Below, one piece after another: positions 4,315 to 59,133 of a stretch of 64,000 nucleotides of DNA. The notes under the pieces were generated by a model. That model searched no databases, had not been told where the DNA came from, and saw only the letters and a program-made list of their open reading frames with translations. The position numbers and the translations under genes are program-made. Position 1 is the first letter of the stretch; every line of letters starts with the position of its first letter. The stretch is taken from contig JAGVZE010000010.1 in the NCBI GenBank assembly GCA_018302815.1, positions 3,523-67,522 of the forward strand, in the 5' to 3' direction. This DNA is from Candidatus Woesearchaeota archaeon. Its GTDB lineage: Archaea; Nanobdellota; Nanobdellia; Woesearchaeales; ARS49.

Positions 4315-5286
4315 TCAATACGCAGTCGTGATTGTCAAATGATGCGGTTCTTTAGTTTTCCTTGCCTGCGACCACAATCTGTAATCTATATGCAGCGCGT
4401 TAACGCTTTTTTCACCGCGCAATTCATTCACTTTATCAGTGAGCCTTTTTGCAGAGTGTATAGTTGACGCGCGCAGCTCAAGCTCTTCTTGACTGTCCTT
4501 TGAAATCAGCGTTTGTTCATCCACACGCTTTGCAAGAGAAGCAGAGTAAACTAAAATGCCAAGACTCCTTAGCGCCTTCGGAAGCACATAATCCGCGAAA
4601 ACAGTGAGCTCATCTATGTCCTCAACATCGAATAAGCCAGTCTTGTTTAAGCGCGCATAAAGCTTGGCTGCAGATAACTGCGCCTTTTTATCAAAACGAA
4701 CTAAAGTTCCGTTGTACTGTGCAGAATCTTCATACGCAGGAAATTCCTGCACCAACCTGTCTATCATTCCCTTTCCACCATCAAACAGCCTATTTGGGCA
4801 GCTCTTGATGAAATTGTGGAACCACCCATCATATCGCTCGCACAAAATCGCGCCGACTTCATTAAAAATCCGCACACGCTCGTCAAGAAGCGGAATATTG
4901 CTCTTTGGCGCGAAAAACTTCTGCGCATCATCCCTTGTGAAATTTTTCAGATAATTCCCGTCAAGAATCGGCAGCCCTGCTTCGATCGCCCTTTTCAAGG
5001 AAGCCCACATTCCAAAAGCTCCAACCCACTCTTTTCCTTTGAAATCTGTAGCGTATTTCTCTTTAGTGTAAAAATCAGTATACGCAAAATTTATCGAATT
5101 TCCAAGCAAAAAGAAATCAATTGTCGACTCATCGTTATTTTCAGGAAAAACAGGCGCATCCCAAGACGGAACTTCAAGAACCTCATCGCAGAACATTTTG
5201 GCTGCAGATTTTATTGCATCTTCATCAATTCGCACATACTGCGAATTCTCAATAATGCGAGAAGTCGTGAGCAATACTGGATTCAT
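4315..5286 (-). CDS. DUF2419/Qng1-like queuosine-salvage family protein (tentative)
   Basis: ~320 aa. FFLLGNSINFAYTDF and the C-terminal HHLTITTAY resemble conserved blocks I recall for the DUF2419 (queuosine 5'-phosphate N-glycosylase) family. Assignment is from memory, not a search. Confidence 0.4.
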   Translation of the reverse strand: MNPVLLTTSRIIENSQYVRIDEDAIKSAAKMFCDEVLEVPSWDAPVFPENNDESTIDFFLLGNSINFAYTDFYTKEKYATDFKGKEWVGAFGMWASLKRAIEAGLPILDGNYLKNFTRDDAQKFFAPKSNIPLLDERVRIFNEVGAILCERYDGWFHNFIKSCPNRLFDGGKGMIDRLVQEFPAYEDSAQYNGTLVRFDKKAQLSAAKLYARLNKTGLFDVEDIDELTVFADYVLPKALRSLGILVYSASLAKRVDEQTLISKDSQEELELRASTIHSAKRLTDKVNELRGEKSVNALHIDYRLWSQARKTKEPHHLTITTAY

Positions 5287-5329
5287 TGACAGGGCTAATT
5301 CACCCCAACTATAAAAAGTTTATACTTAT

Positions 5330-5650
5330 TTACCGCATATCACAATCCCTTTCGTAAAATTCTTCAAGCGTCCCGTACTGAGGAACTAGCAGTCTTATCT
5401 TTTGGAATAATACCCCATCAAGAGGCTTGCACACTTTGCACGGGCGATATCCTTGCGACACTGCATCCTCAAGGCAGAGAAAGAAAACCCTGTTCTCTTT
5501 TTTCATCCTAACGCCTGACCTGCAGTCAAGAGTGCCAAAGATTTTGCCTGTTTTCCAGCCGGCATAAAGACCTGGAATATCGCTTTCGACCAGAATTCCT
5601 TGATTTAGCACACGATAGGCACCCATACCAGTCATAAAACAGCAAAGCAT
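5330..5650 (-). CDS. stand-alone Ada-like zinc-binding domain protein
   Basis: GKIFGTLDCRSG ... FFLCLEDAVSQGYRPCKVCKP matches the Ada N-terminal metal-binding domain pattern (TGIFCRPSC ... GFRPCKRCxP). True start is probably an internal Met (MTGMGAYR). Confidence 0.5.
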   Translation of the reverse strand: MLCCFMTGMGAYRVLNQGILVESDIPGLYAGWKTGKIFGTLDCRSGVRMKKENRVFFLCLEDAVSQGYRPCKVCKPLDGVLFQKIRLLVPQYGTLEEFYERDCDMR

Positions 5651-5678
5651 ATAAATGTGTTCTCATCAATCAGTAGTT

Positions 5679-6089
5679 ATGAAATGGATAATCGCACTCC
5701 TAGTACTATTGGTTGCATGTTCAACCGTAGAGCAGACCGTTATGTCAAAACCAGCAGTACAGCCTGAACAGACAATCGTTCAGCAAGCGCCGGCAGAACA
5801 GCAAATTCTTGAAGCAGAAGTAAAAGCGCCTGTTGAGACCGCCCCCGCCCAACTTGAGCCAACAGAACAAGTCCAATTAACTTGCGATGACCTTTGCCAG
5901 CAAGACTGCGAAAGAGACGCGCAAAACGCCTGCAAACAACAAGAACGCTCAGATTGCAAATCTCAGTGCGGAGACATCATAGACCCGTCAGCTTGCAGCC
6001 AAGCCTGCTCGTTCCTACACCAAAGCGCCACCTGCAAAACCCAATTCGAACAATTCTGCAAGGCAAAATGTGTTGAACGGTGCAATTAA
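5679..6089 (+). CDS. secreted cysteine-rich lipoprotein (14 Cys in the last ~70 aa)
   Basis: MKWIIALLVLLVACST is a lipoprotein-type signal. A Gln/Pro/Glu-rich linker is followed by a Cys-dense C-terminal domain (CDDLCQQDCERDAQNACKQ...CVERCN). Confidence 0.5.
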   Translation: MKWIIALLVLLVACSTVEQTVMSKPAVQPEQTIVQQAPAEQQILEAEVKAPVETAPAQLEPTEQVQLTCDDLCQQDCERDAQNACKQQERSDCKSQCGDIIDPSACSQACSFLHQSATCKTQFEQFCKAKCVERCN

Positions 6090-6092
6090 GCA

Positions 6093-6806
6093 ATGGATGT
6101 CGAGCTACGCGATTTAGAGCGTAAAGTCCGCGAAGGAAACACCGACGCACTCGCACCATACGCACAAGCATGCGTTCGAGCGCAAAAGAACATGTACGAG
6201 TTTCTTCCGTTATTTGTTGAGAACAGACGGAATGCCGGCTTAAGGAGAGTGCTTAATGACGCAGGGTTGCTTGGGATGCAGCAGTATGGCGATATGGCTT
6301 TGCTTGAGCTAGATGATCGAGTCACACCCTCTGGAAACGTCATAGCGTTCAATCAGTTGATGAATAACTACCCTGACGCAACTGAGTTTTTTACATCGAG
6401 CGAATCTGTTCGCGTAACGAAAACTCCCAACAATCATCTCAAATATACCTTCATGAAGCCCAACGGTGCTTGCAAACAGGAAATTGATCTGTCGGAAGGC
6501 ACCATACGTGATTCTCCGAATCCGAAGTTAATAGAATTCATCTTCGGCAATCTGACCAACACATATCTCAGCAGAGGACGAATCATCCAAAATCGCAACT
6601 ATCGATTTGTTCCCAACTTCGGAGGATCCGCATTCGAATCGGTTCTTCTTCAGCTTAACTTATCATTCATACTACAATTCAATCCTCCGAATTATACATT
6701 GAATATTACGGCCAGGAACACTCAGAACTCAGCTCCAAGAGTTTCCGGAGTCACCCGCCAAGCCGCAGACCTTTTGAGCCCGCCATCCGAGGCAACAAAT
6801 GGATGA
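6093..6806 (+). CDS. unrecognised-family protein, paralog A (conserved N-domain, variable body, LLSPPS tail)
   Basis: The first ~95 aa are near-identical to the next gene (TDALAPYAQACVRAQ, YEFLPLFVENRRNA). C-terminal tail is VTRQAADLLSPPSEATNG. No signal peptide or TM segment. Confidence 0.55.
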   Translation: MDVELRDLERKVREGNTDALAPYAQACVRAQKNMYEFLPLFVENRRNAGLRRVLNDAGLLGMQQYGDMALLELDDRVTPSGNVIAFNQLMNNYPDATEFFTSSESVRVTKTPNNHLKYTFMKPNGACKQEIDLSEGTIRDSPNPKLIEFIFGNLTNTYLSRGRIIQNRNYRFVPNFGGSAFESVLLQLNLSFILQFNPPNYTLNITARNTQNSAPRVSGVTRQAADLLSPPSEATNG

Positions 6807-9849: not shown

Positions 9850-9881
9850 AATGTAACATAATGAAGTATTTGTTTAAAAAA

Positions 9882-10764: not shown

Positions 10765-11385
10765 ATGGCAGAGATGAAATTGGAACGCATACTGGGCAAG
10801 ATCCACCACGCGTCTTTTGCGACACAATACGAAGCCGCGAGCACAATGATTCGATTCTCAGAATACTACGAGAACCCGAAACTACGAGGGACCGCATTCA
10901 CTCTCGATGAAGTCATGGATTTCTGGGCTCAAAAAAATGGGAAGATGGAGTATTTTGAATACTGGGAAGGATTCAATGTCCCATCAGTTGTATTCGAGCA
11001 ATTCATCAATGGGAAAATGGATCCCTTACGCGATAAAGAAAAAATGCTTTTGGACGCGCTCAAAAAGATACCGTGTCCTTTTTACCTCATCGCAACCCGC
11101 GAAGGAATAGACCCTGCCACTATGAAACACGAAATAGCGCACGGACTCTTCTATACAAACGCAGAGTATTACAAGAAAGCCATGCACATCATATCTGAAA
11201 TCGACAAAGCGCCCATTTTTGAATTTCTTCGCGATGAGAACTATCACAAGTCCGTGTGGTTTGATGAAACACACGCATATTTGCTCGATGGAGGCTCAGA
11301 CCTTCGCAAAGCAGGAATCGCGCTTAAACCATACCGCAACGCGCAAAAACAGCTCCAAGCGCTCTATCGCGAATTTACAAAATAG
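10765..11385 (+). CDS. hypothetical protein with HExxH (HEIAHGLFY) zinc-hydrolase motif
   Basis: Single HEIAH motif at ~aa 130; no family recognised. Confidence 0.4.
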   Translation: MAEMKLERILGKIHHASFATQYEAASTMIRFSEYYENPKLRGTAFTLDEVMDFWAQKNGKMEYFEYWEGFNVPSVVFEQFINGKMDPLRDKEKMLLDALKKIPCPFYLIATREGIDPATMKHEIAHGLFYTNAEYYKKAMHIISEIDKAPIFEFLRDENYHKSVWFDETHAYLLDGGSDLRKAGIALKPYRNAQKQLQALYREFTK

Positions 11386-11455
11386 ATATTTTAATTCTCA
11401 TAGGAATATTTCTACCACGCACAATTATTAACAGAATATTTAATTCGTCACATAG

Positions 11456-11941
11456 GTGATACAAATGACAAAAATATACCACACAGACTGGGGCGGAAAT
11501 AGGCAAATATACACAGAAGCGAACAAGCCAAACATCGAAGGGCTCATCGAACACGAGCTTAAAAACCACGAATTCGGCGAAAAAATACAATCATTTGCAG
11601 GATGGACACCGCACTATCAATTCGAAGAAGCAGGATTCAAATTAGAGAAAAAAGTGGACCTCTTAAGAATCGGAAAACCAGTCAAAAGAATCAAAAACGG
11701 CGCGTTCCAAGTAAACGTTGAAGGCGTAATAGAAATAACTCCTGAAGACGAGCAATACGGCAGAGCAAACGCAGGAACAAAAGGCATACTTAGAACGCCC
11801 GAAAATAAGCTTTTGCTGCGAAACGAATACGAACGGTTAAACAACTCGCAGATACCATTCGTTGTGTTCAGAACATACAGAGGATGGCCTGCGATTTGGG
11901 ATAGCGTGTATTTTTTCTCACAGGGGGAGTTCAAAGGATAG
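11456..11941 (+). CDS. hypothetical protein (161 aa)
   Basis: Clean ORF with no recognised motifs. A 7-bp hairpin (cagcccc atac ggggctg) lies just downstream. Confidence 0.4.
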   Translation: MIQMTKIYHTDWGGNRQIYTEANKPNIEGLIEHELKNHEFGEKIQSFAGWTPHYQFEEAGFKLEKKVDLLRIGKPVKRIKNGAFQVNVEGVIEITPEDEQYGRANAGTKGILRTPENKLLLRNEYERLNNSQIPFVVFRTYRGWPAIWDSVYFFSQGEFKG

Positions 11942-11976
11942 ATTTAAAAGTAAAATGGGAGAACACAGCCCCATAC

Positions 11977-12066
11977 GGGGCTGTCTGCTAGGGGTAGGCT
12001 ACACCCTTGGGGCGACGTAAATGTCTCAAAATGGGTGTGACGCGAGTTCAATTCTCGCCAGTCCCA
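11977..12066 (+). tRNA. tRNA with putative ~19-nt intron (tentatively tRNA-Pro GGG)
   Basis: Manual fold. Acceptor ggggctg/cagtccc pairs 7/7 with one G-U. T-arm gcgag-ttcaatt-ctcgc has a consensus T54T55C56R57A58 loop. Anticodon stem caccc/gggtg. D-stem is only 3 bp with a GG-containing loop. 90 nt total implies an intron. Anticodon GGG assumes the canonical 37/38 intron position. Confidence 0.55.
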
Positions 12067-12128
12067 TGAAACTGCCATGCGAAGCTTTTGTTTAAAATCG
12101 ACAAGGCAGGATTGAACGCTGGCCACGA

Positions 12129-12160
12129 AGTGGATTGAGTTCAATTCTCGTAAGTCCCAT
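12129..12160 (+). repeat. partial direct copy of the tRNA 3' end (T-arm + 3' acceptor), att-like remnant or 3' half
   Basis: gagttcaattctcg..agtcccat recurs 92 nt downstream of the same block in the tRNA (~4 mismatches over ~30 nt). No matching 5' acceptor strand found upstream. Confidence 0.4.
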
Positions 12161-12167
12161 CAAATTT

Positions 12168-12899
12168 ATGAGTCTTAAAACCGCAGTAATATTCACAGGC
12201 CCAACAACAACGGGCAAGACTGACATCGCAACAGCGCTCGCAAAGCGATTCGATGGAGAAATAATCAACTCCGATAGATTGTACGTCTACTCATTCTTGA
12301 GAATTGGGAGCGGATTGTCCGATACGCTTGAATCATCAGATGTCGCGCGGCATCTCTATGGAATATGCGGGCCTTCAGACATACTTTGCGCAGATGAATA
12401 CGTTCGCCGCATTGAAGAACTCGTGCCGAAAATCTTGTCAAGGAAGAAACTGCCAATAATTGAAGGCTGCTCATCAATCTACAACCCTGCGCTAATAGAG
12501 AGCAACCGACAACCAGGCAGGACATTCCACTATTCACCAATAATCGCGCTAAGATGGCCAAGCGGGACGAATTTAAGAAGCAGAATCGAAAAACGGCTTG
12601 AACAAATGTTTGAAGAAGGCCTTTTGCAGGAAGCAACCGCGATTTTCAATTCAGGGTACAAAAGCATACATCCAATCGAAATAAGCGTCGTTTACAACCC
12701 ACTCATGAAATATCTGGATGGTAATCTGACTCTAGCTGATGCGAAAGAGAAAATCATTGATCGTTTTATAGAGGTTGCTCATATGCAGCTAGAAAAATTC
12801 GAGACAATACCTGAAATCCAATGGATAGAAGCCAATCCGAATACACCCCAGAGGACACTGCAGCAGGCAATCGAGATTATAACTGGAGTGTGCCGATAA
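12168..12899 (+). CDS. isopentenyltransferase (IPT family; Tzs/adenylate-IPT-like or short MiaA-like)
   Basis: P-loop GPTTTGKTDIA. Blocks SDRLYVY, LRIGSG and LPIIEGCSSIYNPAL align with Tzs LDRVQCC / IATGSG / LILEGGSISLL and with the MiaA N-terminus. At 243 aa it matches adenylate IPTs rather than ~310-aa MiaA. The ATG at 12168 was chosen so the CDS does not overlap the tRNA-like repeat. Confidence 0.65.
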   Translation: MSLKTAVIFTGPTTTGKTDIATALAKRFDGEIINSDRLYVYSFLRIGSGLSDTLESSDVARHLYGICGPSDILCADEYVRRIEELVPKILSRKKLPIIEGCSSIYNPALIESNRQPGRTFHYSPIIALRWPSGTNLRSRIEKRLEQMFEEGLLQEATAIFNSGYKSIHPIEISVVYNPLMKYLDGNLTLADAKEKIIDRFIEVAHMQLEKFETIPEIQWIEANPNTPQRTLQQAIEIITGVCR

Positions 12900-12936
12900 C
12901 GACATCTTTAAAAACCGCGTTCTAAGCTTTCAGAAT

Positions 12937-13380
12937 ATGAAAAACAACCAACTACTCGAAATCTTTCTAGAGCATTACTGGCACAAGGATACGCGAGACA
13001 CCGAGTACAAACAGCGGAACGTTCCTTACCAAGTCCAGGTTCCGACAACCGTCTTTGAACTCCACAACATACTTAAGCCTAAAAAAACCGATGACCTCTC
13101 AGCCATAGAATACTGCGAACTTATCAAATCAGCTTACGTGAATGAAACACTTGAAGAAATGAAACTTAGCCACGGGCAGAGCACACAGGGAAGAACTCCG
13201 CAATCGTTTGTTTATACTGACAGGCTCGAACCAAGCGTCATCATCACATCAGAAATAGACCTAGCGGCATTTGGAAGGATCTGGTTCACGGTCAGCGCAC
13301 TTGAAAAAGAACGATTCGATAGCCTTGTCAACTTGACGCACGCATTCATGGGAAAACTCAACATACCACGCGCCCAATGA
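12937..13380 (+). CDS. hypothetical protein (147 aa)
   Basis: ORF only; no motifs. Confidence 0.35.
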   Translation: MKNNQLLEIFLEHYWHKDTRDTEYKQRNVPYQVQVPTTVFELHNILKPKKTDDLSAIEYCELIKSAYVNETLEEMKLSHGQSTQGRTPQSFVYTDRLEPSVIITSEIDLAAFGRIWFTVSALEKERFDSLVNLTHAFMGKLNIPRAQ

Positions 13381-13415
13381 GAATATTTATATAACAAAAC
13401 GACCCTGCGCACTTC

Positions 13416-14237
13416 ATGAAAAAAGCGGTGCTGTATGCAAGCCTTCTTGGCGCCGCCGCAAGCATATTCTTTCTGAAACCCGAAAGTGAATTCTCACAAT
13501 CGTACAGAAATCCATCTGAAATTCAGGCAAGACAATCAATCGAGTCCATCCTAACATTACCAGAGAAAACTGTTGAAAACAAGAAAAAAGTCCAAGCAAT
13601 CGCGCCAATTTCAAGCATTGAGTACGTATCTGAACACAAGCCAATCCCGAACAAAGATGAACATGGTTGCCTGCTCTTTGATAGAGAGTTGAACCGCCCA
13701 GAACCTGATCAGGCAATACCTGAGCGAATAATTGAAGAGAACAGCCCGCTTTCCTGCGCTTTTCGATATTTTAGGCCGATTCGAGAAGCCATGCTTGAAT
13801 ATCACTGCACGCCAAACACTGCGCTTAGAAATGAATCGATTGAGCGAGTACGACAGGAACTAACCGAAGAACTGCGTGCGATGCCAAACTTCGATGCGCG
13901 ACTCTCAACAATACTTCACCTCCAGCAATTAGTATCCGATGAACTGGCGAGAGCCACAGACGTGAGAGCGAGTTCTTATCTGCAATCAATACGAGACAAC
14001 CTTTGCGAAGAGGGAACTGCAATAAATACTCACGCGTTGAATTCTGCGAACTGCTACCAATACCTCGTGATAATGAAATCGCTGCCGAACGAGTCAAAAA
14101 GGCACTGGTATAACCTCTGGATCGGTATAAAGCAGCAAGCTCAAGAACACGAGATACGAGTCAGGCAAGGACAGGCAACAGATTCTCAAGCGCCGCTCGA
14201 ACAAATTCTCCAATTGCGGTTCACTGAAAGCTATTGA
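13416..14237 (+). CDS. secreted hypothetical protein
   Basis: Signal peptide MKKAVLYASLLGAAASIFF; the rest is unrecognised. Confidence 0.45.
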   Translation: MKKAVLYASLLGAAASIFFLKPESEFSQSYRNPSEIQARQSIESILTLPEKTVENKKKVQAIAPISSIEYVSEHKPIPNKDEHGCLLFDRELNRPEPDQAIPERIIEENSPLSCAFRYFRPIREAMLEYHCTPNTALRNESIERVRQELTEELRAMPNFDARLSTILHLQQLVSDELARATDVRASSYLQSIRDNLCEEGTAINTHALNSANCYQYLVIMKSLPNESKRHWYNLWIGIKQQAQEHEIRVRQGQATDSQAPLEQILQLRFTESY

Positions 14238-14281
14238 AACTAGATACCCCTTTATATAATACCTGCCATTAAATGATGTAA

Positions 14282-14578
14282 ATGGTAAGCTATAAGCAGT
14301 TATGCGCACGGTGCAAAAAACAATTCGTTCTTATCAGCGGGAACCAGTTCCCCGTATGCTATGACTGCCAGAAAAAAGAGCTTTCGGGCGAAATAAAGGA
14401 TCCGAAAATGAAAAAAATGTTTAAACTGCCAGAAGAGCTCTATATGAACAATCCATTTCTTCGCGACATAAAAGCTAAATACCTTCGATTCGGGAATCTA
14501 ACTGAAAAACAAATAGACGCGTTCAAGAGAGTATCGAAAGAGCTTCTGGATGCCTCGCTTAAGAAATCCACAGACTAG
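14282..14578 (+). CDS. small zinc-ribbon protein
   Basis: CARCKK...CYDCQKK (CxxC..CxxC) followed by a basic helical tail. Confidence 0.4.
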   Translation: MVSYKQLCARCKKQFVLISGNQFPVCYDCQKKELSGEIKDPKMKKMFKLPEELYMNNPFLRDIKAKYLRFGNLTEKQIDAFKRVSKELLDASLKKSTD

Positions 14579-14683: not shown

Positions 14684-14873
14684 CGCGCAGCAAGCTGCGG
14701 AGTATTACACTAGTTTTCTCCTGTGGGACCGACAATTTCTGTCTGTCAAAAATCACTAAAGCCATACTAGTAGTAGTGATTTTTGAGCACACTCGGAATT
14801 CCATGCAATTTCAATTAGCAACAGGGAATTCCGATGTTTCATTTTAGGAACGTCCAACCGCAGCAAGCTGCGG
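14684..14873. repeat. two copies of palindrome cgcagcaagctgcgg[a/g]gtatt flanking an 11-bp-stem hairpin and two ggaattcc sites
   Basis: Copy 1 at 14686-14705, copy 2 at 14859-14878. Hairpin caaaaatcact / agtgatttttg at 14747-14785. ggaattcc at 14795 and 14825. All lie in the 330-nt intergenic region upstream of the glycosyltransferase cluster. Confidence 0.4.
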
Positions 14874-14911
14874 GGTATTGGACCCAAAATGAAATAAGAT
14901 AATGCTATTAT

Positions 14912-15922
14912 ATGACTGCCGTATTTGGCATCAAAAGAACCGACAAAATGAACATTGACGCACACGGGCAAAATCACAAGATGAAAGCAACAATACTGCT
15001 AACCACATATGCGACAAGAAAGACCGTGCTGCCCACAGTATACGCATTATTGAACCAAGAATTCGCAAAAGATCAATTCGAGATAATAATAACCGACAGC
15101 GAATGGTTGTCGACAGAAGATAAATTCGCATTGGCACACATTTGCAAAGATAATCCGAACCTGCTCCTAAGATCGTTTGAAAACAAAAATTCCGCCGAAT
15201 CATACAATGCTTCGATCCAAGAATCAAACGGAACACATATTTTGTTTATCGCGCCGCATTGCATACCCAAACGAAATTGGCTCAAAAATTGGATAACCTT
15301 AGCATCAAAACACGAAAATTTCATGGCCGCCGGCCATATTGAATGTATCGACTCAAAATATGCAGTAGGAATATATGAAAAAAACCAGCACGAGCGCATA
15401 ATCGCGAAAAATCAGGACAAAAAAGAGAACGCACATTTTGATTACCACAACTCGATAGCAGAACGAAAACTCATCATGGAAAACGGAATGTTCGATACGA
15501 CATTCACGTCACCTGCCTGCGTCACGGAATTCGGATTACGCCACACAATAACGGGTGGAAAAATAGCAGTCATAAGAAGCAACCCCGTGCACCACTTAAA
15601 TGAAATTCGACTTTCGACCTACTGTAAACTCGCATATGCTGATGGCTTTGATGCAGGAATATTGAATCTCAAGTACGCAAAAAATGAAAAATTCAGGACA
15701 ACCCATCCGACCTTGATGAAACATCTCACTTTATTGAATTATGCCTGGCCCGCAGTCGAGATTTCAGCTCGAATAATCTCATTATTTTTCATCGCAACCT
15801 ACTTCGCAGCCCACATAATCCGCTCAAATAACTTAAAACAGCATTCAATATATACCTCCGTGAAAAATTCACACAGACTAGGACAACTCAAAAGCATACG
15901 ACTTCACAAAGAGCTGATTTGA
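14912..15922 (+). CDS. glycosyltransferase family 2-like protein
   Basis: N-terminal Rossmann-like region ILLTTYATRK...FEIIITDSE resembles a GT-A fold; a hydrophobic segment near the C-terminus. True start may be an internal Met. Confidence 0.45.
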   Translation: MTAVFGIKRTDKMNIDAHGQNHKMKATILLTTYATRKTVLPTVYALLNQEFAKDQFEIIITDSEWLSTEDKFALAHICKDNPNLLLRSFENKNSAESYNASIQESNGTHILFIAPHCIPKRNWLKNWITLASKHENFMAAGHIECIDSKYAVGIYEKNQHERIIAKNQDKKENAHFDYHNSIAERKLIMENGMFDTTFTSPACVTEFGLRHTITGGKIAVIRSNPVHHLNEIRLSTYCKLAYADGFDAGILNLKYAKNEKFRTTHPTLMKHLTLLNYAWPAVEISARIISLFFIATYFAAHIIRSNNLKQHSIYTSVKNSHRLGQLKSIRLHKELI

Positions 15923-16870
15923 ATGAAAGCATCAGTAATAATTTCTGATGTGAATTCACAAGGCATGCTGATCGCATCAGTATATTCTACAGTCACTCAA
16001 GATCTGCCCTGCCAAGATTTTGAAATCTTACTTCCGATCAATAACGAAATCAACTTTGAAGACCTGCAACTACTTAGGGCAATCCAATCAGAGCACAGCA
16101 ACCTGCACCTCATTGATTCAACCGGAAGTAACCGAAGCCAAGCGATAAACACTGCATGTAAACTCGCCAAAGGAGACATCCTGCTTTTCACAGAATCGCA
16201 CTGCTTAGCCCCCAGAAATTGGATACGAAAATTCGTGGAGCAATTCAAAGATAAAAAAATCAAGCTTTCACTCGGCACAACAATATCCGTGGCAAGCGCT
16301 TCACCAGTGTCCATCGCCGAATCAAAGCAACAAAAACAATCGACTGATAACTCCATCAAATTAGGGCTGGATAAATCATATTTCGATTTTCATAATTGCG
16401 CCATCAGAAAGGACTCATTTTGGGAATTAAACGGATTGAATGAAGAAATCCCAATATTCGCTGAATTCGATTTTGGAGCACGAGCGGTCGATCAAGGCAG
16501 ATCCATCAAAAAATCAAATGGAACTGTGCTGCATTTTAATGATACCAGCCTTGCGCGCCATTCACTAATAATATCCGCACAAGGAGAAAATAAGATGAAG
16601 CTTTATCTGCAAAAGGATGAAAAATACATACGACGCTATTTTCCCATGCCAAAACTGATACGTTTCAAAAGAATACTGGTGCCCTTTAGACGGTCGATAG
16701 AGTTAGCTCTCATATTCCTGAAAAATGTTTGGATAATCGGATTCGTACTGACAGTAATATTAAATATGCCATCTGCACAAGTTTCATTCTTCAGGCAATT
16801 CGCGATAGCAAGCCACAGACTTGGAACCATAAAAGCACTGTCGAAGACACAGCCGAGAAAAAGGAAATAA
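15923..16870 (+). CDS. glycosyltransferase family 2-like protein (paralog of 19661..20605)
   Basis: ASVIISDVNSQG...FEILLPINNE, FDFHNCAI; C-terminal TM segment. Confidence 0.5.
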   Translation: MKASVIISDVNSQGMLIASVYSTVTQDLPCQDFEILLPINNEINFEDLQLLRAIQSEHSNLHLIDSTGSNRSQAINTACKLAKGDILLFTESHCLAPRNWIRKFVEQFKDKKIKLSLGTTISVASASPVSIAESKQQKQSTDNSIKLGLDKSYFDFHNCAIRKDSFWELNGLNEEIPIFAEFDFGARAVDQGRSIKKSNGTVLHFNDTSLARHSLIISAQGENKMKLYLQKDEKYIRRYFPMPKLIRFKRILVPFRRSIELALIFLKNVWIIGFVLTVILNMPSAQVSFFRQFAIASHRLGTIKALSKTQPRKRK

Positions 16871-16871
16871 A

Positions 16872-17855
16872 ATGTTAAAAAAAATATCAACATACTTGAA
16901 AAAAGTGATGAAACTGCAGTTGAGTGCACCTGCCCACGTGAATATAGAGATTTCAACCGCCTGCAATCTGAAATGCAAGATGTGCAAACGAGAGAAATTC
17001 GATTTCGGGAATAAACTGATGCCATTTGAGACATTCACCGCAATAATGGAAAAACTTCCCAAAGGAGTCGAAATAATATCTTTCGGAGGATATGGCGAGA
17101 TGACGCTCCACCCCCGATTCTTTGATATGGTAAAATATGCAAAAGAAAAAGGATACCGAACAGAAACAACATCAAATGGAACTTTATTTTCAACTGATGA
17201 AAAAATTCACAAGCTTCTTGAAAGCAAACTTGACACCATACGAATATCAGTGGATCACATACGCGAACCGCTCGAAGAAAATGATGCAGGACACGTATTC
17301 TCTTCGACACTATTGCAAAATCTGAAAAGGCTTAACGAACTTAGACGCGAAACAAAAAAATCCATGAAATTATGCATAAACACAGTAGTTCACGCAGGAA
17401 ACATCGATGAACTTATCGAGCTAGTGAAATATTTTGAAGATATAGGCTTTGATATGGTCGAGTTCATAAGACTTGACACTAATATGAACAATGCGCAACG
17501 AACACTCCAAATACAAAAAGAAAAAGAAACATACACAACAATATTGAAAATGAATAAAAGAATAAAAGTCATAACTCCTTTAAACAGATTCGCAAAATGG
17601 CGAAAGTACTATGCATCCAACAACACATTCTGCATATTCCTTCATCAATGCGCACACATAAGAATCAACGGACAAGTCACACCTTGCGCATTTGGATTCG
17701 CCATGCACGATTTTGGCAACATACACGAGCAAAGCTTGACGCAAATCTGGAACAATGATGAATTCTTGCGCATCAGGAAAAACCCCGAGAATCCAACCTG
17801 CCAAAACTGCAAAATATTCAAATGGCCAGCCAATATTTTGCCCACAAAACAATAG
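16872..17855 (+). CDS. radical SAM protein with C-terminal SPASM-like Cys cluster
   Basis: NIEISTACNLKCKMCKRE (CxxxCxxC). C-terminal CAFGFAMHDFGN...CQNCKIF cysteine cluster typical of a SPASM/twitch domain. Confidence 0.7.
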   Translation: MLKKISTYLKKVMKLQLSAPAHVNIEISTACNLKCKMCKREKFDFGNKLMPFETFTAIMEKLPKGVEIISFGGYGEMTLHPRFFDMVKYAKEKGYRTETTSNGTLFSTDEKIHKLLESKLDTIRISVDHIREPLEENDAGHVFSSTLLQNLKRLNELRRETKKSMKLCINTVVHAGNIDELIELVKYFEDIGFDMVEFIRLDTNMNNAQRTLQIQKEKETYTTILKMNKRIKVITPLNRFAKWRKYYASNNTFCIFLHQCAHIRINGQVTPCAFGFAMHDFGNIHEQSLTQIWNNDEFLRIRKNPENPTCQNCKIFKWPANILPTKQ

Positions 17856-17931
17856 AATTCACACAAAATAAATAAATTGCCCAGATGAAACCATCAACAA
17901 AAGAAGTCATATATTCGCTGAACTTACAAAT

Positions 17932-18522
17932 CTAACTATTCATTCCCTGCGGGAAAACAAACTCGCCCTTCTGGCACAGAACTACATCTTCTCCATTCAT
18001 CTTGCCAAGAGACCAGCCCTTTTCCCTACCCATCTCGTAAATTCGTTCCAAAAGCTGAGTTCGGTTGTAAGGAGTTCGCTCATAGCAGTACACATCGCCG
18101 CCAATCTGATAGAACGGCTTTGCAGCAGCTGAACTTGAAGGCCAGAAAAAGCCAGTGACTTCCTCTGCAGGGCTCGTAGTTGGAACAGAATAACAGCTGA
18201 ACGCGTCCTGAGGCGCTGGAATCTTGAATGACAAATCATTCCAACAAACGCTCATCTCGCGGATTGTTCTAAATTCTCCCTTAAAAAAAATCATTATGGG
18301 CGTTCGAGAGCCGATTGTCTGCATAGGTCCGGAAGGAACCTGAGGCGAAGGGCCGCCAGGCATATACCTTGGCAAAGCAGTTGTTTGAGCTATACCGCCA
18401 CCGTAGACTTCACTCACACCATATGCTGCAAGACCCTTGTTGACTGTTAAAAGAACTAACGCGGAAATAGCAACAATTAGAACAATACCAAATATAAACG
18501 TTGACGTCTGCCCTCTTTTCAC
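17932..18522 (-). CDS. archaeal type IV pilin-like protein (class III signal peptide)
   Basis: MKRGQTSTFIFGIVLIVAISALVLL has the K/R-G-Q/A/S prepilin-peptidase motif plus a hydrophobic helix. Ser/Thr/Asn-rich body consistent with a glycosylated surface protein. Confidence 0.6.
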   Translation of the reverse strand: MKRGQTSTFIFGIVLIVAISALVLLTVNKGLAAYGVSEVYGGGIAQTTALPRYMPGGPSPQVPSGPMQTIGSRTPIMIFFKGEFRTIREMSVCWNDLSFKIPAPQDAFSCYSVPTTSPAEEVTGFFWPSSSAAAKPFYQIGGDVYCYERTPYNRTQLLERIYEMGREKGWSLGKMNGEDVVLCQKGEFVFPQGMNS

Positions 18523-18602
18523 AAATATCAGAAAGACCTTCCAGTTCTTAAACCTTTGCTAGTTGCGATTACTTTTTATACCCTCCACCGGTTCTTTCAA
18601 TC

Positions 18603-19664
18603 ATGCACGTAGGCATCTATACTGAATGTCTCACTAAACGGTACACGGGAGTAGAAGTGATGGCTCACAGGCTGGTTGAAGAAATCTCTAAAACAAACAA
18701 AGTAACGTGCTTCCACACAAAAAACAAGACACATCCACTATTTACAAATGTAAAACACCACTTATTCAGACGATCTCTGCCAATTCCGGCGTACAACCAA
18801 CTCGCCTCTTTTTTCAGAATGAACTGTTTTAACAAAGTAGACTTGCTCCACCTTCCGCACCCTCACGTGCCCTTCGTGAAAATGCCAAGCATACCTGTTG
18901 TCATGACAGTGCACGATATAATCCCTGCATTTCACCCTGAATTTCATAACACAAAAAGAAGTTTCTATTTTAAACACATACTCCCTGGATTTATTCGCAA
19001 AATGGACGCAATACTTGCGAGCAGCGAAACAACCAAAACGGACCTCATCACACATTACCGGTTGGATGAACAGAAAATCCACGTAGTACCACTGGCGCTG
19101 CCTGAAAAGAAAAACGTAGTGCGCACTCCGCAAGAATTCATTTTATACCTTGGCACTCTTGAACCACGAAAGAATGTCGATGGAATAATCAAAGCGTACT
19201 CACTTCTTAGAAAACAAGGAATCACACATAAACTTGTAATCGCAGGAGGCATGGGCTGGAATTACGAGCACATTTTCAAACTCGTCAGGCAATCAGGCCT
19301 TGAAAACGAAGTGATATTCAAAGGGTATGTCGATGAAGATGAAAAACGAAGACTCTACCAAACCGCAGCACTCTTTGTTTGGCCCTCATTCTATGAAGGA
19401 TTCGGCCTTCCGGTTCTCGAAGCGATGCAGTACGGAGTTCCTGTCGTGACGTCCACCGCGTCCTCCCTTGCGGAAATCGCGGCGGATAGCGCACTCCTTG
19501 CGGATCCGCACTCTCCTGAGTCAATTGCTGATGCTATGAGCGCAGCGCTTGAACCAGTCATGCAAAAAAAACTCTCTCGAAAAGGAATCGAACGCGCCCG
19601 CCTCTTCACAATAGATAATTACGTGAAGAAAACGATTGACGTATATTCAAAGGTGGCTCGATGA
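18603..19664 (+). CDS. glycosyltransferase family 4
   Basis: C-terminal EGFGLPVLEAMQYGVPVVTS is the classic GT4 (GT-B) signature. Confidence 0.8.
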   Translation: MHVGIYTECLTKRYTGVEVMAHRLVEEISKTNKVTCFHTKNKTHPLFTNVKHHLFRRSLPIPAYNQLASFFRMNCFNKVDLLHLPHPHVPFVKMPSIPVVMTVHDIIPAFHPEFHNTKRSFYFKHILPGFIRKMDAILASSETTKTDLITHYRLDEQKIHVVPLALPEKKNVVRTPQEFILYLGTLEPRKNVDGIIKAYSLLRKQGITHKLVIAGGMGWNYEHIFKLVRQSGLENEVIFKGYVDEDEKRRLYQTAALFVWPSFYEGFGLPVLEAMQYGVPVVTSTASSLAEIAADSALLADPHSPESIADAMSAALEPVMQKKLSRKGIERARLFTIDNYVKKTIDVYSKVAR

Positions 19665-20605
19665 AAGTCACAATACTCGTATCCGAAATGGACAACCAAG
19701 GAATGATATTATTCACACTGCACGCGCTCTGCACGCAAAACTACCCCGAAGAACTATATGAAATCATCGTACCCGATATGGGCACTTTTTGCGCGGAAGA
19801 TCGAGCGTTAATAGCTCAATTGCAAGAACAGTTCCCTCAATTGAAAATATTGAAAGACCCATCCAAGAACCGCGCAGAACTCTTCAATCTTGCAGCAAAA
19901 CAAGCGAAAGGAGAACTATTCTGCCTCATAGAAAGCCACTGCTATGCTCACAAAAACTGGATAGCGAACTACGTGAATCTGTTCAAGAAAGAAGGATTCG
20001 ACCTCGCGGCAGGAACCTTCAAAACAGTGCCTACTGATTCTCCCGTAGGTCATGCGCAGGACGAATTCTTCAATGAAGTATGCAGAAGAATCGAGAAACA
20101 AAAAGTCAAATGGTCCTATTTTGACTGCCACAACTCAGCCATCACCCGCACCTGTTATGAAAAACTCAACGGAATGGACGTGCGCTTGCCGAATATGTGC
20201 GAATTCGAGCTGGGAGCCAGAGGCTGCGAACTTGGACTTTCAATACTGCGCACACCAACCAACTTAGTTTGGCATTTCAACGACAACCGCCTCTCCAATT
20301 ACTCGAAAATCGTCCACTGGCAGGGAATAGACCGCACACGCATGCTCATCATCCACGGACCAGAATTCATTAGAAAATATTTTCCTAACCCCCGCTTTGT
20401 CAAACTGCTCCCATACCTCACCCGCCTGCGGCCCATTTTCCTCGCTGCCACACTTTCACTCGTATATCTTTCCAGAATAGGAATCATGGCATCAAGACTC
20501 CTCAAACTCAAAAAGCAGTCAGCTCACTTTTTCATGCACCACGCAGAAAACAGCGTACGCTACGGAATGATAAAAGGCCTTAAAAATTCAAATCAGGTTC
20601 GATGA
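19661..20605 (+). CDS. glycosyltransferase family 2-like protein (paralog of 15923..16870)
   Basis: VTILVSEMDNQG...YEIIVPDMG, FDCHNSAI; C-terminal TM segment; 4-nt overlap with the upstream GT4. Confidence 0.5.
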   Translation: MKVTILVSEMDNQGMILFTLHALCTQNYPEELYEIIVPDMGTFCAEDRALIAQLQEQFPQLKILKDPSKNRAELFNLAAKQAKGELFCLIESHCYAHKNWIANYVNLFKKEGFDLAAGTFKTVPTDSPVGHAQDEFFNEVCRRIEKQKVKWSYFDCHNSAITRTCYEKLNGMDVRLPNMCEFELGARGCELGLSILRTPTNLVWHFNDNRLSNYSKIVHWQGIDRTRMLIIHGPEFIRKYFPNPRFVKLLPYLTRLRPIFLAATLSLVYLSRIGIMASRLLKLKKQSAHFFMHHAENSVRYGMIKGLKNSNQVR

Positions 20606-20609
20606 AACC

Positions 20610-21680
20610 ATGCGCATACTACACCTCGCCAAATACTACCCTCCAACAAAAGGAGGCATGGAAACCCACATCTCAACACTATGTGAAGAGCTCAGCTCAC
20701 AAGGACATGACGTCACATGCTACGCGTTCGGACAGGTGAAGGAAAACACAAAAGGAGTGAACGTAAAAATCTTCAAGAGCCTGTTCAAAACACCACCCTT
20801 CTCACCTGCTCTCCTATGGACTCTATTAACCAATCGAAATAAATTTGATATTGTACATGTACACATGCCAAACCCATGGGTTGAACTTTGCGCACTCATA
20901 GCAAAACCAAAAAAACTCGTCGCATCATACCATTCAGACATCATAGGCAAACGCGGAGCGTCGTTGTATTTGCCCTTCCAAAGAATTCTGCTTCGACGCG
21001 CTAACGCAATAATATCCGCATCAAAACAATATTCTCAAACATCCGACCAACTAAGGCGATTCCACTCAAAAATCACACTAATACCGTACGGGATAACTCC
21101 TTTAGCCATATCAGATACTCAATTGGTCAAAGAAATACGTTCTCGCTCAAAGGGCCCAATTTATCTTTTCGTCGGAAGACTAGTCCACTATAAGGGAGTT
21201 CGCTACCTGATAGAAGCTATGGGAAGCACCGATGGAACGCTCATAATTGTCGGAGATGGCCCCCTCAAAAAAGAGCTAGCCGATCTTGTGCGCTCTCTCA
21301 AACTCAGCGATAAGATTGTTTTTGCGCAAAACGTGACTGATGAGCAGCTGCCATCATTTTATGAAGCGTGCGACGTTTTTATCCTCCCCTCTATAAATCG
21401 AGCTGAAGGTTTTGGAATAGTACAACTAGAAGCGATGATGCGCGCAAAGCCAGTCATCAGCACAAGACTTGGAACAGGAACCGATGAGATCAACATTCAC
21501 GGTAAAACCGGACTCACAGTTGAACCTGAAAACCCAAAACAGCTATCAGACGCAATGAATACTCTTGACCGCGACCCCTTGCTAAGAATAGCTCTTGGAA
21601 AGGAAGCAAAGAAAAACGCGTCAAAATATAGCGCCTCAAGAATGACCCGCGATATTCTTGCTATTTATCGAACTATTTGA
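20610..21680 (+). CDS. glycosyltransferase family 4
   Basis: EGFGIVQLEAMMRAKPVIST motif; ~356 aa. Confidence 0.8.
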   Translation: MRILHLAKYYPPTKGGMETHISTLCEELSSQGHDVTCYAFGQVKENTKGVNVKIFKSLFKTPPFSPALLWTLLTNRNKFDIVHVHMPNPWVELCALIAKPKKLVASYHSDIIGKRGASLYLPFQRILLRRANAIISASKQYSQTSDQLRRFHSKITLIPYGITPLAISDTQLVKEIRSRSKGPIYLFVGRLVHYKGVRYLIEAMGSTDGTLIIVGDGPLKKELADLVRSLKLSDKIVFAQNVTDEQLPSFYEACDVFILPSINRAEGFGIVQLEAMMRAKPVISTRLGTGTDEINIHGKTGLTVEPENPKQLSDAMNTLDRDPLLRIALGKEAKKNASKYSASRMTRDILAIYRTI

Positions 21681-24236: not shown

Positions 24237-25183
24237 TCTTTCACCCTACGCGCGATCACAAAGAGCTGTATGCCTCCCGTTGGAAACAGCCAAAAAATCG
24301 GATAGGTCAATAGCGCAGGAACAATAAAAAGTCGACGGCACGCCCTTAAAATCAAGCGCTTCAAACTAAATCCTCTAACATCAACTGACCTATATGAGTT
24401 TCTTGCGCTTGGAAGAGCAAGAGCCACAATCCGTTCAAACGTGAAAACCCAATTGCCAAAATGATGAGTTTGTATCTTCGCAGAAAACCCATTGCGCCTC
24501 AAAAATTGCCTCAATGAGCGAGCATTCCACCTCAAAAAGTGATGAGGCGGACTATCCATCTCCTTTGGAAGAAGCCGAGATGAAATAGGACGATTCGGAA
24601 CAGTAAGAACCAGCACACCGTCACGCTCCAACATCAAGGAAATGCCGCGCAAGAAACCAGCAGGATCAGACTGATGCTCAAGAGTCTCAAAACAAGTTAT
24701 AATGTCAAAACACCCGCGTTTTTTCAAGCAGTATTCCTGCGGGCTTGCCGCAGAAAGCATCAATCCATACTCCCTCTTCCCATATTCAATCAGAGAACGA
24801 TTGAAATCCATACCTTCGACCGAGTATCTGCCCCTGCACTTATTCAGAAAATTCCCAGTGGCACACCCTACATCAAGAAGCGTTTTTTTGCCATTGAAAC
24901 GTTTCCCGCAAAAAACTTTGTGATACCATGCAAGAGGAACATCACGCTCCAACTGAGCGTAGTCAGGATGACTCTCATAAAAAACAGGGTCTATCACAGA
25001 TGGACTTGAAAACACAAGATCGCACCTAACGCACTTGAAAAGCGTAAAATCCATCCAACGCTCAACAAAAACGCAAGGAGCTTCCAACTCGCAAGAAGGG
25101 CACATTGAAGAAACCTCAACCATTTTTCCTCCAAGCCAGCCTAAACAGCTCAACATGCAACTGAGCGCATTGATCCCAATCAT
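24233..25183 (-). CDS. class I SAM-dependent methyltransferase with N-terminal zinc ribbon
   Basis: CPSCE...CVRCD ribbon; LLDVGCATGNFL (motif I) and DIITCFETLEH. Confidence 0.7.
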   Translation of the reverse strand: MIGINALSCMLSCLGWLGGKMVEVSSMCPSCELEAPCVFVERWMDFTLFKCVRCDLVFSSPSVIDPVFYESHPDYAQLERDVPLAWYHKVFCGKRFNGKKTLLDVGCATGNFLNKCRGRYSVEGMDFNRSLIEYGKREYGLMLSAASPQEYCLKKRGCFDIITCFETLEHQSDPAGFLRGISLMLERDGVLVLTVPNRPISSRLLPKEMDSPPHHFLRWNARSLRQFLRRNGFSAKIQTHHFGNWVFTFERIVALALPSARNSYRSVDVRGFSLKRLILRACRRLFIVPALLTYPIFWLFPTGGIQLFVIARRVKE

Positions 25184-27527: not shown

Positions 27528-27533
27528 CCCGTT

Positions 27534-28790
27534 ATGCGAACCGCACTCAAGCGCGCGATTTTAAACGGAAAAATAGTAGCACAGAACATCAAAGCGCTGG
27601 ATTTATCCTATTTCGCCAAAGGAGCGTTTTGGCTTGGCAGCTCATACGTGATAATAGCACTAATACGCCTTGCACAATCCTCAATCCTCGCGCGCGGCTC
27701 AAGCGTCGAATTTTTCGGCCAGTTCCAATTCGTTCTAAGCATCATCGCAACCCTTACCCTTGCGGCCCTTCCCGGAATGGAAACTGCTATCACACAGGCA
27801 GTCGCGAATAAAAAAACCGCATCGCTTATACTCGGAACAAAAGCAAAACTTAAGTCGAGCCTCATTGGAAGCATATCCCTTCTTGCGCTCGGCGCATTCT
27901 TCACGTTCATAAAACCCCAACCATTCGCTCAAGCGCTAATCGTGGCAGCCCCGCTGTTTCCGATTTACACAAGTTTCAACAGCATTCAAGGATACTATCG
28001 CGGAACGGGCAATTTCAAGATGGCTTCCTTTTGCGAGACCTTGTTCTACTCGGTGAATGCCATCGCATTAATCAGCGCATTTCTAATCACTCATTCGCTC
28101 ACAATCATGCTTCTCTCCATGATGATCGCGGGAGCCACCATAATGATGGCACTATACCTGAACGTAGCGCGAAATATCAGATCCGAAGAATCAGACCCAT
28201 CAACGGTTTCGCTTGGAAAAAGTTTAACCCTTATGAGTGCCATCCAATTTACAACTCCGCACATAGACCGATACATCATCACTGCATTTCTTGGCTTTGA
28301 AGCGCTTGCCATTTACACAATCGCGATATCAATCTCACTATACCTCACATACGGAGGAAAATTGCTGAGCACACTGGTTCTGCCAAAGCTCGCACGCATC
28401 CAAGCCCACCACGAAACGCGCATAAAACACCTATTATTCGCCTATGCTTTTTCCATCGCGGCCACCCTCGCGCTCATCGCACTAGTACTCCCCTATGCAA
28501 TTCCTCTTCTCTTCTCGGACCAATATACGTCATCAATACCGCTGGCCCAGCTCTCCTTGACAGCCCTCGCATTTTCACTGCCATCAATGATTCTAATCAC
28601 TTATTTCCAGACCCGCAAAAACCTGGCGCTCCTTTATAAATTTCAGTTCGCCAAAGGCGCGTTCAACTTCGTACTGCTCATTTTGCTCGTCTCCTGGCTT
28701 GGAATCATGGGCGCAGTCATCAGCAAAATAATCCTTGAACTTTGCGGATTCATCTTCCTTTCAAGACGATTTTATGCAATAAAGATTTAA
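27534..28790 (+). CDS. Wzx-like oligosaccharide flippase (MOP superfamily)
   Basis: 418 aa with ~12 predicted TM helices, positioned among the GT/AglB genes. Confidence 0.55.
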   Translation: MRTALKRAILNGKIVAQNIKALDLSYFAKGAFWLGSSYVIIALIRLAQSSILARGSSVEFFGQFQFVLSIIATLTLAALPGMETAITQAVANKKTASLILGTKAKLKSSLIGSISLLALGAFFTFIKPQPFAQALIVAAPLFPIYTSFNSIQGYYRGTGNFKMASFCETLFYSVNAIALISAFLITHSLTIMLLSMMIAGATIMMALYLNVARNIRSEESDPSTVSLGKSLTLMSAIQFTTPHIDRYIITAFLGFEALAIYTIAISISLYLTYGGKLLSTLVLPKLARIQAHHETRIKHLLFAYAFSIAATLALIALVLPYAIPLLFSDQYTSSIPLAQLSLTALAFSLPSMILITYFQTRKNLALLYKFQFAKGAFNFVLLILLVSWLGIMGAVISKIILELCGFIFLSRRFYAIKI

Positions 28791-28814
28791 AGCGAACGCG
28801 ATTCCGCACATTTT

Positions 28815-41689: not shown

Positions 41690-41690
41690 A

Positions 41691-44540: not shown

Positions 44541-44549
44541 GCCAACCAA

Positions 44550-59060: not shown

Positions 59061-59133
59061 CTCTTTAGCTCAGCAACCTGAGCCTTGCACTCCATTAAAT
59101 GGTTATTACAACCAAAAATGCAACAGTGTTGCA

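Follow-up and report, generated by a model that had tools for sequence, protein, structure and literature searches.

In a 64-kb stretch of DNA from a Candidatus Woesearchaeota archaeon (the window, meaning the whole stretch of 64,000 nucleotides (nt) that was analysed), the gene at 12168-12899 encodes a 243-residue protein of the isopentenyltransferase (IPT) superfamily that lacks the insertion domain of the bacterial tRNA isopentenyltransferase MiaA. The protein carries what is predicted to be an intact active site and is probably an adenylate-type IPT, in neither the Tzs lineage nor the plant lineage. Judging from its residues and its context, we put the chances at about even that its acceptor is a free adenine nucleotide (adenosine mono-, di- or triphosphate; AMP, ADP or ATP) and not A37 of tRNA. 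Cytokinin-type nucleotide prenylation in archaea has not been described before.

12168-12899, + strand: coding sequence of the 243-residue insertion-less isopentenyltransferase, from the ATG start and including the stop codon

An earlier sequence-only reading of the window had called this open reading frame (ORF) of 243 amino acids, and it is indeed a real, conserved gene, far beyond what chance would produce. The protein, which was found on 13 contigs, the longest of 76.6 kb, is identical to the NCBI entry 'hypothetical protein J4219_05150 [Candidatus Woesearchaeota archaeon]'. The window itself bears archaeal marks, including AglB/STT3, a diphthamide synthase, an EF1A-type GTPase and a tRNA whose intron sits at position 37/38, as is canonical for archaea.

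Family membership and predicted fold

The window protein is a member of the IPT superfamily, and both its sequence and its predicted fold come nearest to the bacterial MiaA core, not to Tzs. Profile searches, a check that the sequence-only reading had suggested, gave matches above the gathering cut-offs for two Pfam families, with 76.1 bits for IPPT (PF01715; E 4.4e-21; cut-off 23.6) and 37.9 bits for IPT (PF01745; E 1.6e-9; cut-off 20). The NCBIfam model of the MiaA equivalog, TIGR00174, gave 109 bits, under its cut-off of 148.65. The best PDB matches by phmmer were the bacterial MiaA structures 2qgn and 3d3q (E ~1e-22).

The AlphaFold2 model of the protein, with a predicted local distance difference test (pLDDT) value of 93.6, shows the two-lobed IPT fold. 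In the fold comparison, MiaA structures came first (29.6 for the 2qgn core, 29.3 for 2zm5), followed by the plant adenylate IPT 3a8t (26.0), yeast Mod5 3eph (25.9) and Tzs 2ze5 (20.8), with nucleotide kinases far lower at 12.8 or less. The Foldseek ranking agrees, with the MiaA core first and Tzs lower. The four motif blocks that had been said to be shared with Tzs were reproduced by MAFFT (Tzs/window protein: GPTCSGKTD/GPTTTGKTD, LDRVQ/SDRLY, ATGSG/RIGSG and EGGSISLL/EGCSSIYN). The likeness to MiaA is nonetheless greater: the IPPT score exceeds the IPT score, and MiaA is nearer in the phmmer search, the TIGR00174 scan and the fold comparison.

The insertion domain is missing from the window protein. 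The phmmer match to MiaA falls into two pieces, with query residues 7-111 aligned to MiaA 6-110 and query residues 136-223 aligned to MiaA 204-290; the alignment jumps MiaA ~111-203, which is the insertion domain, and ~70 MiaA residues have no counterpart. In MiaA, the anticodon stem-loop is bound in a cleft formed by this domain and the core (PMC8234997).

12501-12527, + strand: short linker, residues ~112-120, in place of the ~70-residue MiaA insertion ('swinging') domain (alignment; pLDDT >90)

Relatives and phylogeny

A word-indexed search of 5.8 billion proteins returned 11 close relatives of 239-267 amino acids, and a HMMER profile search of 1.84 billion cluster representatives returned 269 matches at E <1e-30. 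Among 161 relatives, taken from the top 150 HMMER matches together with reference sequences, the insertion segment falls into two length classes, with 20-40 residues in 79 sequences vs 83-104 in 81 MiaA sequences. The segment of the window protein measures 28 residues, in keeping with its original description as a short IPT-superfamily enzyme without the MiaA tRNA-binding domain, present in an archaeon.

A phylogeny, which the sequence-only reading had also called for, was built by neighbour-joining (NJ). In this tree the window protein lies outside the canonical MiaA clade of tRNA IPTs and does not group with Tzs, Ipt or Fas4, and the best-scoring insertion-less sequences form lineages apart from canonical MiaA and from the group of Tzs, Ipt, Ralstonia IPT and Fas4. 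The split between canonical MiaA and the short clade was recovered in 177 of 200 NJ bootstraps (88%), or in 191 of 200 if two stray taxa are allowed, and the Tzs group was exclusive in 180 of 200 (90%). The proposed membership of the Tzs/IPT lineage was abandoned in favour of a clade of its own that is nearer to MiaA. From these comparisons the protein appears to descend from, or to be sister to, MiaA-type enzymes, and to belong to a separate clade. A few short sequences nest within the MiaA clade and keep MiaA residues.

The clade comprises proteins of ~230-265 residues, mostly from DPANN archaea, with some from the candidate phyla radiation (CPR) and other bacteria. Databases name its proteins 'hypothetical' or 'MiaA'. 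Its taxonomic labels are few but consistent. A scan of genome contigs contributed four labelled loci, from three Woesearchaeota metagenome-assembled genomes (MAGs) and one Saccharibacteria MAG; further labelled relatives are one Pacearchaeota protein, one Limisphaerales protein and one on a contig with bacterial LolA and FtsK. A metagenome scan contributed nine loci, several of them redundant. Woesearchaeota homologues are widely spread, at 86-37% identity. One of them, the 58%-identical homologue P0006, is followed 349 nt downstream by an archaeal 16S rRNA gene that is cut by the contig end (locus L005, 7780-8659), and this adjoining gene ties the IPT family directly to an archaeal chromosome. 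No relatives of the window protein were found among the IMG/VR viral contigs, and the extra regions of the longer clade members P0067, P0114 and P0044 had no Pfam match.

Active-site and acceptor residues

Residues were compared in a census of 61 short-clade sequences and 81 MiaA sequences, with residue roles taken from a review (PMC8234997). The features at issue are as follows.

12198-12221, + strand: P-loop G11-P-T13-T-T-G-K17-T18 (alignments and census)
12273-12278, + strand: predicted catalytic general base Asp36, followed by Arg37, a basic residue of the adenylate-IPT type (census)
12594-12596, + strand: Arg143, equivalent to MiaA R217 and Tzs R138, predicted to stabilise the leaving pyrophosphate (alignments and census)
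12795-12797, + strand: Lys210, in the column of Tzs D221 (alignment only, low confidence)

The catalytic triad of P-loop threonine, general-base aspartate and pyrophosphate-stabilising arginine is present as T13, D36 and R143. T13 corresponds to MiaA T19 and Tzs T10 (T in 52 of the 61 short-clade sequences), D36 to MiaA D42 and Tzs D33 (D in 59/61), and the R143 column, invariant in alignments A1 and A2, holds R in 59/61. K17 (MiaA K23) is invariant in the short clade (61/61), T18 (MiaA T24) is T or S in all 61, and Y41 (MiaA Y47) is Y or F in 57; in MiaA, K23 and T24 bind dimethylallyl pyrophosphate (DMAPP) (PMC8234997). The active site of the window protein is thus predicted to be intact.

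The residues that grip tRNA are gone. Four MiaA residues bind tRNA according to mutagenesis, namely K56, R167, R170 and K280 in E. coli numbering (PMC8234997). K56, which is K in 75/81 MiaA sequences, is L50 in the window protein, and 33/61 short-clade sequences likewise have L there; K280 and the following R281 are replaced by H205 and M206; and R167 and R170 fall in the absent domain. Charge differs as well, with a median isoelectric point (pI) of 6.3 in the short clade vs 8.7 in MiaA.

The residue that follows the catalytic aspartate separates the two groups further. It is K or R in 47/61 short-clade sequences, including R in all eight members of the window protein's subfamily, vs S, A or C in 81/81 MiaA sequences. 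It is R in the four Tzs-type enzymes (Tzs, Ipt, Ralstonia IPT and Fas4) and K in plant IPT. Tzs R34 hydrogen-bonds the AMP alpha-phosphate, and hop IPT K63 contacts the ATP phosphates (PMC8234997); R37 of the window protein shares the alignment column of Tzs R34. The Tzs D221 column, weakly aligned, holds Lys in both the window protein and plant IPT and W, F or Y in MiaA, and the review equates this position with hop IPT K275, a ligand of the ATP beta- and gamma-phosphates (PMC8234997). A preference for AMP or for ATP/ADP was also sought in the column of Tzs D171 and HlIPT K220; this was dropped, as the plant sequence aligned unreliably there.

On the donor side, H214 and D173 of Tzs, which specify 4-hydroxy-3-methylbut-2-enyl pyrophosphate (HMBPP), are not kept and correspond to V203 and a gap. 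Since these equivalents are missing, the predicted donor is DMAPP, not HMBPP.

Acceptor of the enzyme

The sequence-only reading had also suggested that the enzyme might modify the adjacent tRNA, which ends ~100 nt upstream of the IPT gene.

11977-12066, + strand: tRNA-Pro(GGG), interrupted between positions 37 and 38 by a 19-nt intron, 12013-12031 (Rfam RF00005, 40.9 bits; alignment)

This is the sole tRNA found in the 64 kb. It was recovered by Rfam, while ARAGORN reports no tRNA in the window because the intron is present. The anticodon arm reads CACCC-UU-GGG-G-(19-nt intron)-U-GGGUG, and the molecule is of class I, with G36, G37 and A73; the intron lies within an extended anticodon-arm helix with a 3-nt bulge (fold z = -3.9). 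Isopentenylation requires A36-A37-A38 (PMC5699536), so this tRNA, with G36 and G37, is no substrate for N6-isopentenyladenosine (i6A) formation, and its modification by the enzyme is excluded. At a second locus (L011), a tRNA-Arg(TCG) at 5822-5895 lies ~100-105 nt upstream, on the same strand, of a 39%-identical Woesearchaeota homologue (5977-6726), and it too carries G36 and is not an A36 tRNA. Nine distinct tRNAs were collected on related archaeal contigs (Pro, Met, Gly, Val, Glu, Ile-UAU, Arg, His and the window's own Pro); none of those on these contigs reads UNN codons.

A free-nucleotide acceptor is favoured because the insertion domain is missing, the residue after the aspartate is basic, the tRNA contacts are lost and the protein is not basic, and because neither of the nearby tRNAs qualifies as a substrate and i6A is not known from archaea. 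The free adenylate acceptor that had been predicted at the outset gains in this way from the likeness of D36-R37 to Tzs D33-R34 and from the loss of K56, R167, R170 and K280. In the mechanism that we propose, T13, K17 and T18 of the P-loop would hold DMAPP together with R143, and D36 would deprotonate N6 of the adenine in the reaction channel, upon which the dimethylallyl group would be transferred. R37 would sit where adenylate IPTs contact the nucleotide phosphate, in a protein with none of the elements by which MiaA grips the anticodon. The products would be N6-isopentenyl-adenine ribotides, which NUDIX, Ham1, HAD or LOG-like enzymes found elsewhere in the clade could process further. A wider reading joins these points: DPANN archaea and some CPR bacteria may hold a third, independently derived lineage of adenylate IPTs, convergent with the Tzs-type and plant enzymes, whose processed N6-isopentenyl adenine nucleotides would act toward hosts as a diffusible cytokinin-type signal or as a modified-nucleotide pool. 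We put this forward tentatively, as somewhat less probable than the free-nucleotide acceptor by itself.

Several observations weigh against a free-nucleotide acceptor. The top sequence and fold matches of the window protein are tRNA enzymes, and JGI calls relatives MiaA. The tree that separates the clade is an NJ tree only and is not reliably rootable. The basic residue after the aspartate is missing in 14/61 clade members, including the Saccharibacteria-type sequences (D-N, D-S), and in Saccharibacteria locus L014 the IPT gene (5965-6696) overlaps an upstream TrhO-like (UPF0176-rhodanese) tRNA-modification gene (5055-5972). A 660-residue protein of the canonical MiaA clade, P0098, is a MiaB-MiaA fusion (UPF0004, radical SAM, TRAM and IPPT) whose MiaA part has a shortened insertion segment and retains the tRNA-type residues; given this fusion, insertion loss alone is no proof of lost tRNA activity. 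Neighbour associations across the clade are heterogeneous and mostly convergent, in ~14 contexts only. Finally, no LOG, isoprenoid-pathway or conserved partner gene was found in the 64 kb.

The L014 overlap and the P0098 fusion, a shortened MiaA placed inside a tRNA-modifying protein, also lend themselves to a different explanation, in which the enzyme is a minimal isopentenyltransferase of A37 in some tRNAs or of an adenine in another RNA, a MiaA descendant that has shed the insertion in genome-reduced DPANN/CPR organisms and binds RNA through another surface or a partner. The position of two Woesearchaeota homologues directly downstream of tRNA genes, and the presence of GatCAB near the homologue in two further lineages, would fit the same explanation. 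Yet all four tRNA-binding residues defined by mutagenesis in MiaA (PMC8234997) are gone, the proteins are acidic to neutral and not basic, the equivalog score stays below its cut-off and the clade lies outside canonical MiaA. Moreover, the two adjacent tRNAs (Pro-GGG and Arg-TCG) have G36, the homologue contexts revealed no conserved RNA-binding partner, and i6A has been described for bacteria and eukaryotes only (PMC5699536). We therefore regard an RNA substrate as unlikely, while giving it real weight.

Genomic neighbours of the homologues

The neighbour comparison covered ~14 different homologue contexts, most of them convergent rather than operonic. No partner is universal across these contexts; nucleotide-acting enzymes recur as immediate neighbours.

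L011, 6730-7167, - strand: NUDIX, convergent with the IPT gene, Woesearchaeota
L012, 6740-7174, - strand: NUDIX, convergent with the IPT gene, Woesearchaeota; 52% identical to the L011 NUDIX
L032, 3402-3893, + strand: NUDIX, upstream on the same strand; Saccharibacteria-type sequence
L015, 7748-8314, - strand: Ham1/RdgB non-canonical purine nucleoside triphosphate (NTP) pyrophosphatase, convergent with an IPT gene that comes after NAD-salvage genes
L001, 5010-5483, - strand: cytidine deaminase, convergent; present in L001-L004
L031, 3228-3920, + strand: HAD phosphatase, upstream on the same strand
L013, 2689-3411, - strand: LOG-like TIGR00725/SLOG-cluster-4 protein with the motif GGSGTLTE, divergent

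The NUDIX, Ham1, HAD and LOG-like neighbours may be further processors of N6-isopentenyl-adenine ribotides. In the sequences of L014, L031 and L032, D-N or D-S takes the place of D-K/R, and the L032 copy is frameshifted; sequences of this type may have a different function.

The same contexts bear on whether the acceptor could be another adenine-containing small molecule, such as nicotinamide adenine dinucleotide (NAD) or a precursor of it, ADP-ribose, a dinucleotide or a cyclic nucleotide, or whether another prenyl donor is used, in either case yielding a metabolite or signal unlike cytokinin ribotides. The closest outgroup homologue, P0013 (51% identical), follows a same-strand NAD-salvage block of NadK, an NAPRT-like gene, nicotinamidase, NadE and an NMNAT-like gene, and NUDIX and SLOG/LOG-like neighbours are typical of the processing of nucleotide-derived signals. 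The missing Tzs H214 and D173 equivalents and a MiaA H67 position that varies across the clade would also accommodate such an acceptor or donor. Such a reaction is, however, without precedent in the IPT superfamily, R37 matches the AMP/ATP phosphate-ligand position of the characterised adenylate IPTs, the NAD-gene context occurs in one lineage only, and neither PADLOC nor PHROG matches were found. We consider this explanation improbable.

The tRNA fragment upstream of the gene

Between the tRNA and the IPT gene lies a partial copy of the tRNA 3' end.

12137-12164, + strand: direct repeat, now decayed, of the T-arm and acceptor strand at the tRNA 3' end, 25/28 identical to 12044-12071

The sequence-only reading had placed the gene in an islet bounded by the tRNA and this copy and consistent with horizontal acquisition. 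Both elements exist, as the Rfam score of the tRNA and the 25/28 identity of the repeat show, but they do not bound the gene: the 28-nt repeat stops 3 nt ahead of the IPT ATG, and the two copies lie 93 nt apart, both upstream of the gene. No repeat of this kind was expected by chance (100 shuffles), and the window held no third copy of the tRNA 3' end at 20/28 or more matches. The partial copy was also considered as a second or split tRNA and rejected, with no Rfam match at E<=10 and a fold z of only -1.8.

The order of tRNA, fragment and gene is kept in L017, the locus of the 86%-identical homologue, which comes from another sample. A 53-nt block at 12122-12174, spanning the tRNA fragment and the first IPT codons, is identical to L017 401-453. 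Identity is only 58% in the adjacent spacer, which also has a 65-nt indel, and 86.6% in the coding sequences, where the longest run without a difference measures 42 nt. From this pattern, the 53-nt block may be a constrained 5' leader or a processing signal. In L011, no duplicated tRNA-Arg end was found. A motif, GAAGCTTTTGTTTAAAA / GAAGTATTTGTTTAAAA, occurs at 12081-12097 and 9863-9879, upstream of two genes, and its 12081-12097 copy precedes the IPT start by ~70 nt. This motif is a possible archaeal promoter element of the B recognition element (BRE)/TATA type.

The repeat resembles the scar of an old integration, by now part of the 5' region of the gene, and is no evidence of recent transfer. 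That the gene is instead cargo of a tRNA-integrating mobile element, gained recently from bacteria, might be read from the repeat that adjoins it, from the second lineage with the gene just downstream of tRNA-Arg and from surrounding ORFs that lack database matches, but we hold it to be very improbable: the repeats have the wrong geometry and no third copy, no integrase is found among the annotated genes of the window, region 10765-14578 is ordinary in composition (G+C content 0.439 vs 0.450 for the window; tetranucleotide distance at the 59th percentile of same-size windows), the gene order is conserved in the 86%-identical relative, many Woesearchaeota carry homologues, in one case next to an archaeal 16S rRNA gene, and no viral relatives were found. 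The islet and the horizontal acquisition were accordingly given up.

Surrounding genes and other features of the window

The IPT gene stands among same-strand ORFs of 206, 161, 147, 273 and 98 amino acids, for none of which Pfam, NCBIfam, PHROGs or PADLOC gave a match, and none of which was found next to other IPT homologues. The 206-residue ORF at 10765-11385, upstream of the tRNA, has a HEIAH (HExxH) motif and may encode a small metalloprotease. The LOG-family partner gene for which a search had been advised is not in the window: its six-frame translation holds no PGGxGTxxE/GGxGTxxE motif, and no PF03641 match occurs among its called genes. Elsewhere, one Woesearchaeota homologue does have a LOG-like neighbour. 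Neither an isoprenoid-pathway gene nor MiaB nor a conserved partner was found in the 64 kb.

A glycosylation region of lower G+C content (0.38-0.40 at 15-18 kb) extends over ~14900-29800, with several GT2/GT4 glycosyltransferases, a radical SAM-SPASM protein (16872-17855), AglB/STT3 (21636-24236), a DUF1972 protein and a polysaccharide flippase-like gene. Ahead of the first glycosyltransferase gene, an intergenic direct repeat of 21 nt, CGCAGCAAGCTGCGG(A/G)GTATT, occurs at 14686-14706 and 14859-14879, its copies starting 173 nt apart. At 39773-46142, this archaeal contig carries a complete bacterial-type UvrB-UvrA-UvrC cluster. Pyrimidine-nucleotide genes at 55692-59928 (- strand) and 61270-63327 (+ strand) include dCTP deaminase-like, thymidylate kinase and ATCase/OTCase-like genes, together with a ThyX-like protein that is unusually long at 572 amino acids and has a weak Thy1 match. 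A membrane H+-pyrophosphatase adjoins this cluster.

Significance and comparison with known systems

That archaea normally lack MiaA and i6A37, as the sequence-only reading had assumed, agrees with the literature, which reports IPT genes and i6A as lacking in archaea or as occurring there sporadically (PMC6071968, PMC7049300). Most organisms have the IPPT domain, 'except in Archaea and Mycoplasma' (PMC6071968), and a passage of PMC6996375 describes cytokinins as pervasive 'excluding Archaea'. Our literature search found no publication that links DPANN with MiaA, and DPANN members go unmentioned in the papers that it found. If a free nucleotide is the acceptor, a clade of IPTs in Woesearchaeota and Pacearchaeota that lack the tRNA clamp and are predicted to be catalytically intact would fill this archaeal gap and would offer a third example of the route from a tRNA-type to a free-nucleotide enzyme. 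Ultrasmall symbiotic archaea would then produce prenylated adenine nucleotides, a possible signal between host and symbiont, and, should the wider signalling reading be true, the pathway would be the first of the de novo cytokinin type in Archaea. If the enzyme acts on tRNA instead, no tRNA isopentenyltransferase known would be smaller, and the presence of i6A in archaea would be implied.

Among characterised systems, MiaA (PF01715, TIGR00174; 2qgn, 3d3q, 2zm5/3foz and 3crm) resembles the window protein in its P-loop Thr, Asp, Tyr and Arg and in the two-lobed core with a reaction channel. The window protein differs in the absence of the ~70-residue insertion and of the tRNA-binding K56, R167, R170 and K280, in an Arg in place of MiaA S43, in its acidic pI, in its sub-equivalog score and in its separate clade.

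The bacterial AMP dimethylallyltransferases Tzs, Ipt (Tmr) and FasD (Fas4) (PF01745; 2ze5) have the same length of 243 amino acids and likewise no insertion domain. They share the D-R pair (D33-R34 in Tzs, with the Arg on the AMP alpha-phosphate), and Tzs T10, R138 and S45 have equivalents in the window protein. In contrast, the window protein lies outside the Tzs clade, is without H214 and D173 and has Lys at the D221 position.

The plant ATP/ADP IPTs (hop HlIPT, 3a8t; Bauhinia homologue P0012) also have an IPPT-type core from which the tRNA insertion domain has been lost, with a basic residue (K63) following the Asp and Lys in the Tzs D221 column. They differ in their size of ~330 amino acids, with N- and C-terminal extensions, are 21-24% identical to the window protein, and in the NJ tree group with the MiaA clade or close to it, in a lineage other than that of the window protein.

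Within the archaea, the papers found know of only two sporadic homologues, from TACK/Euryarchaeota, which Wang et al. 2020 described as putative class II tRNA-IPTs of unknown function (PMC7049300). These proteins, from MCG archaeon SMTZ-80 and MSBL1 SCGC-AAA382N08, are archaeal members of the IPT superfamily like the window protein, with which they were compared by description only.

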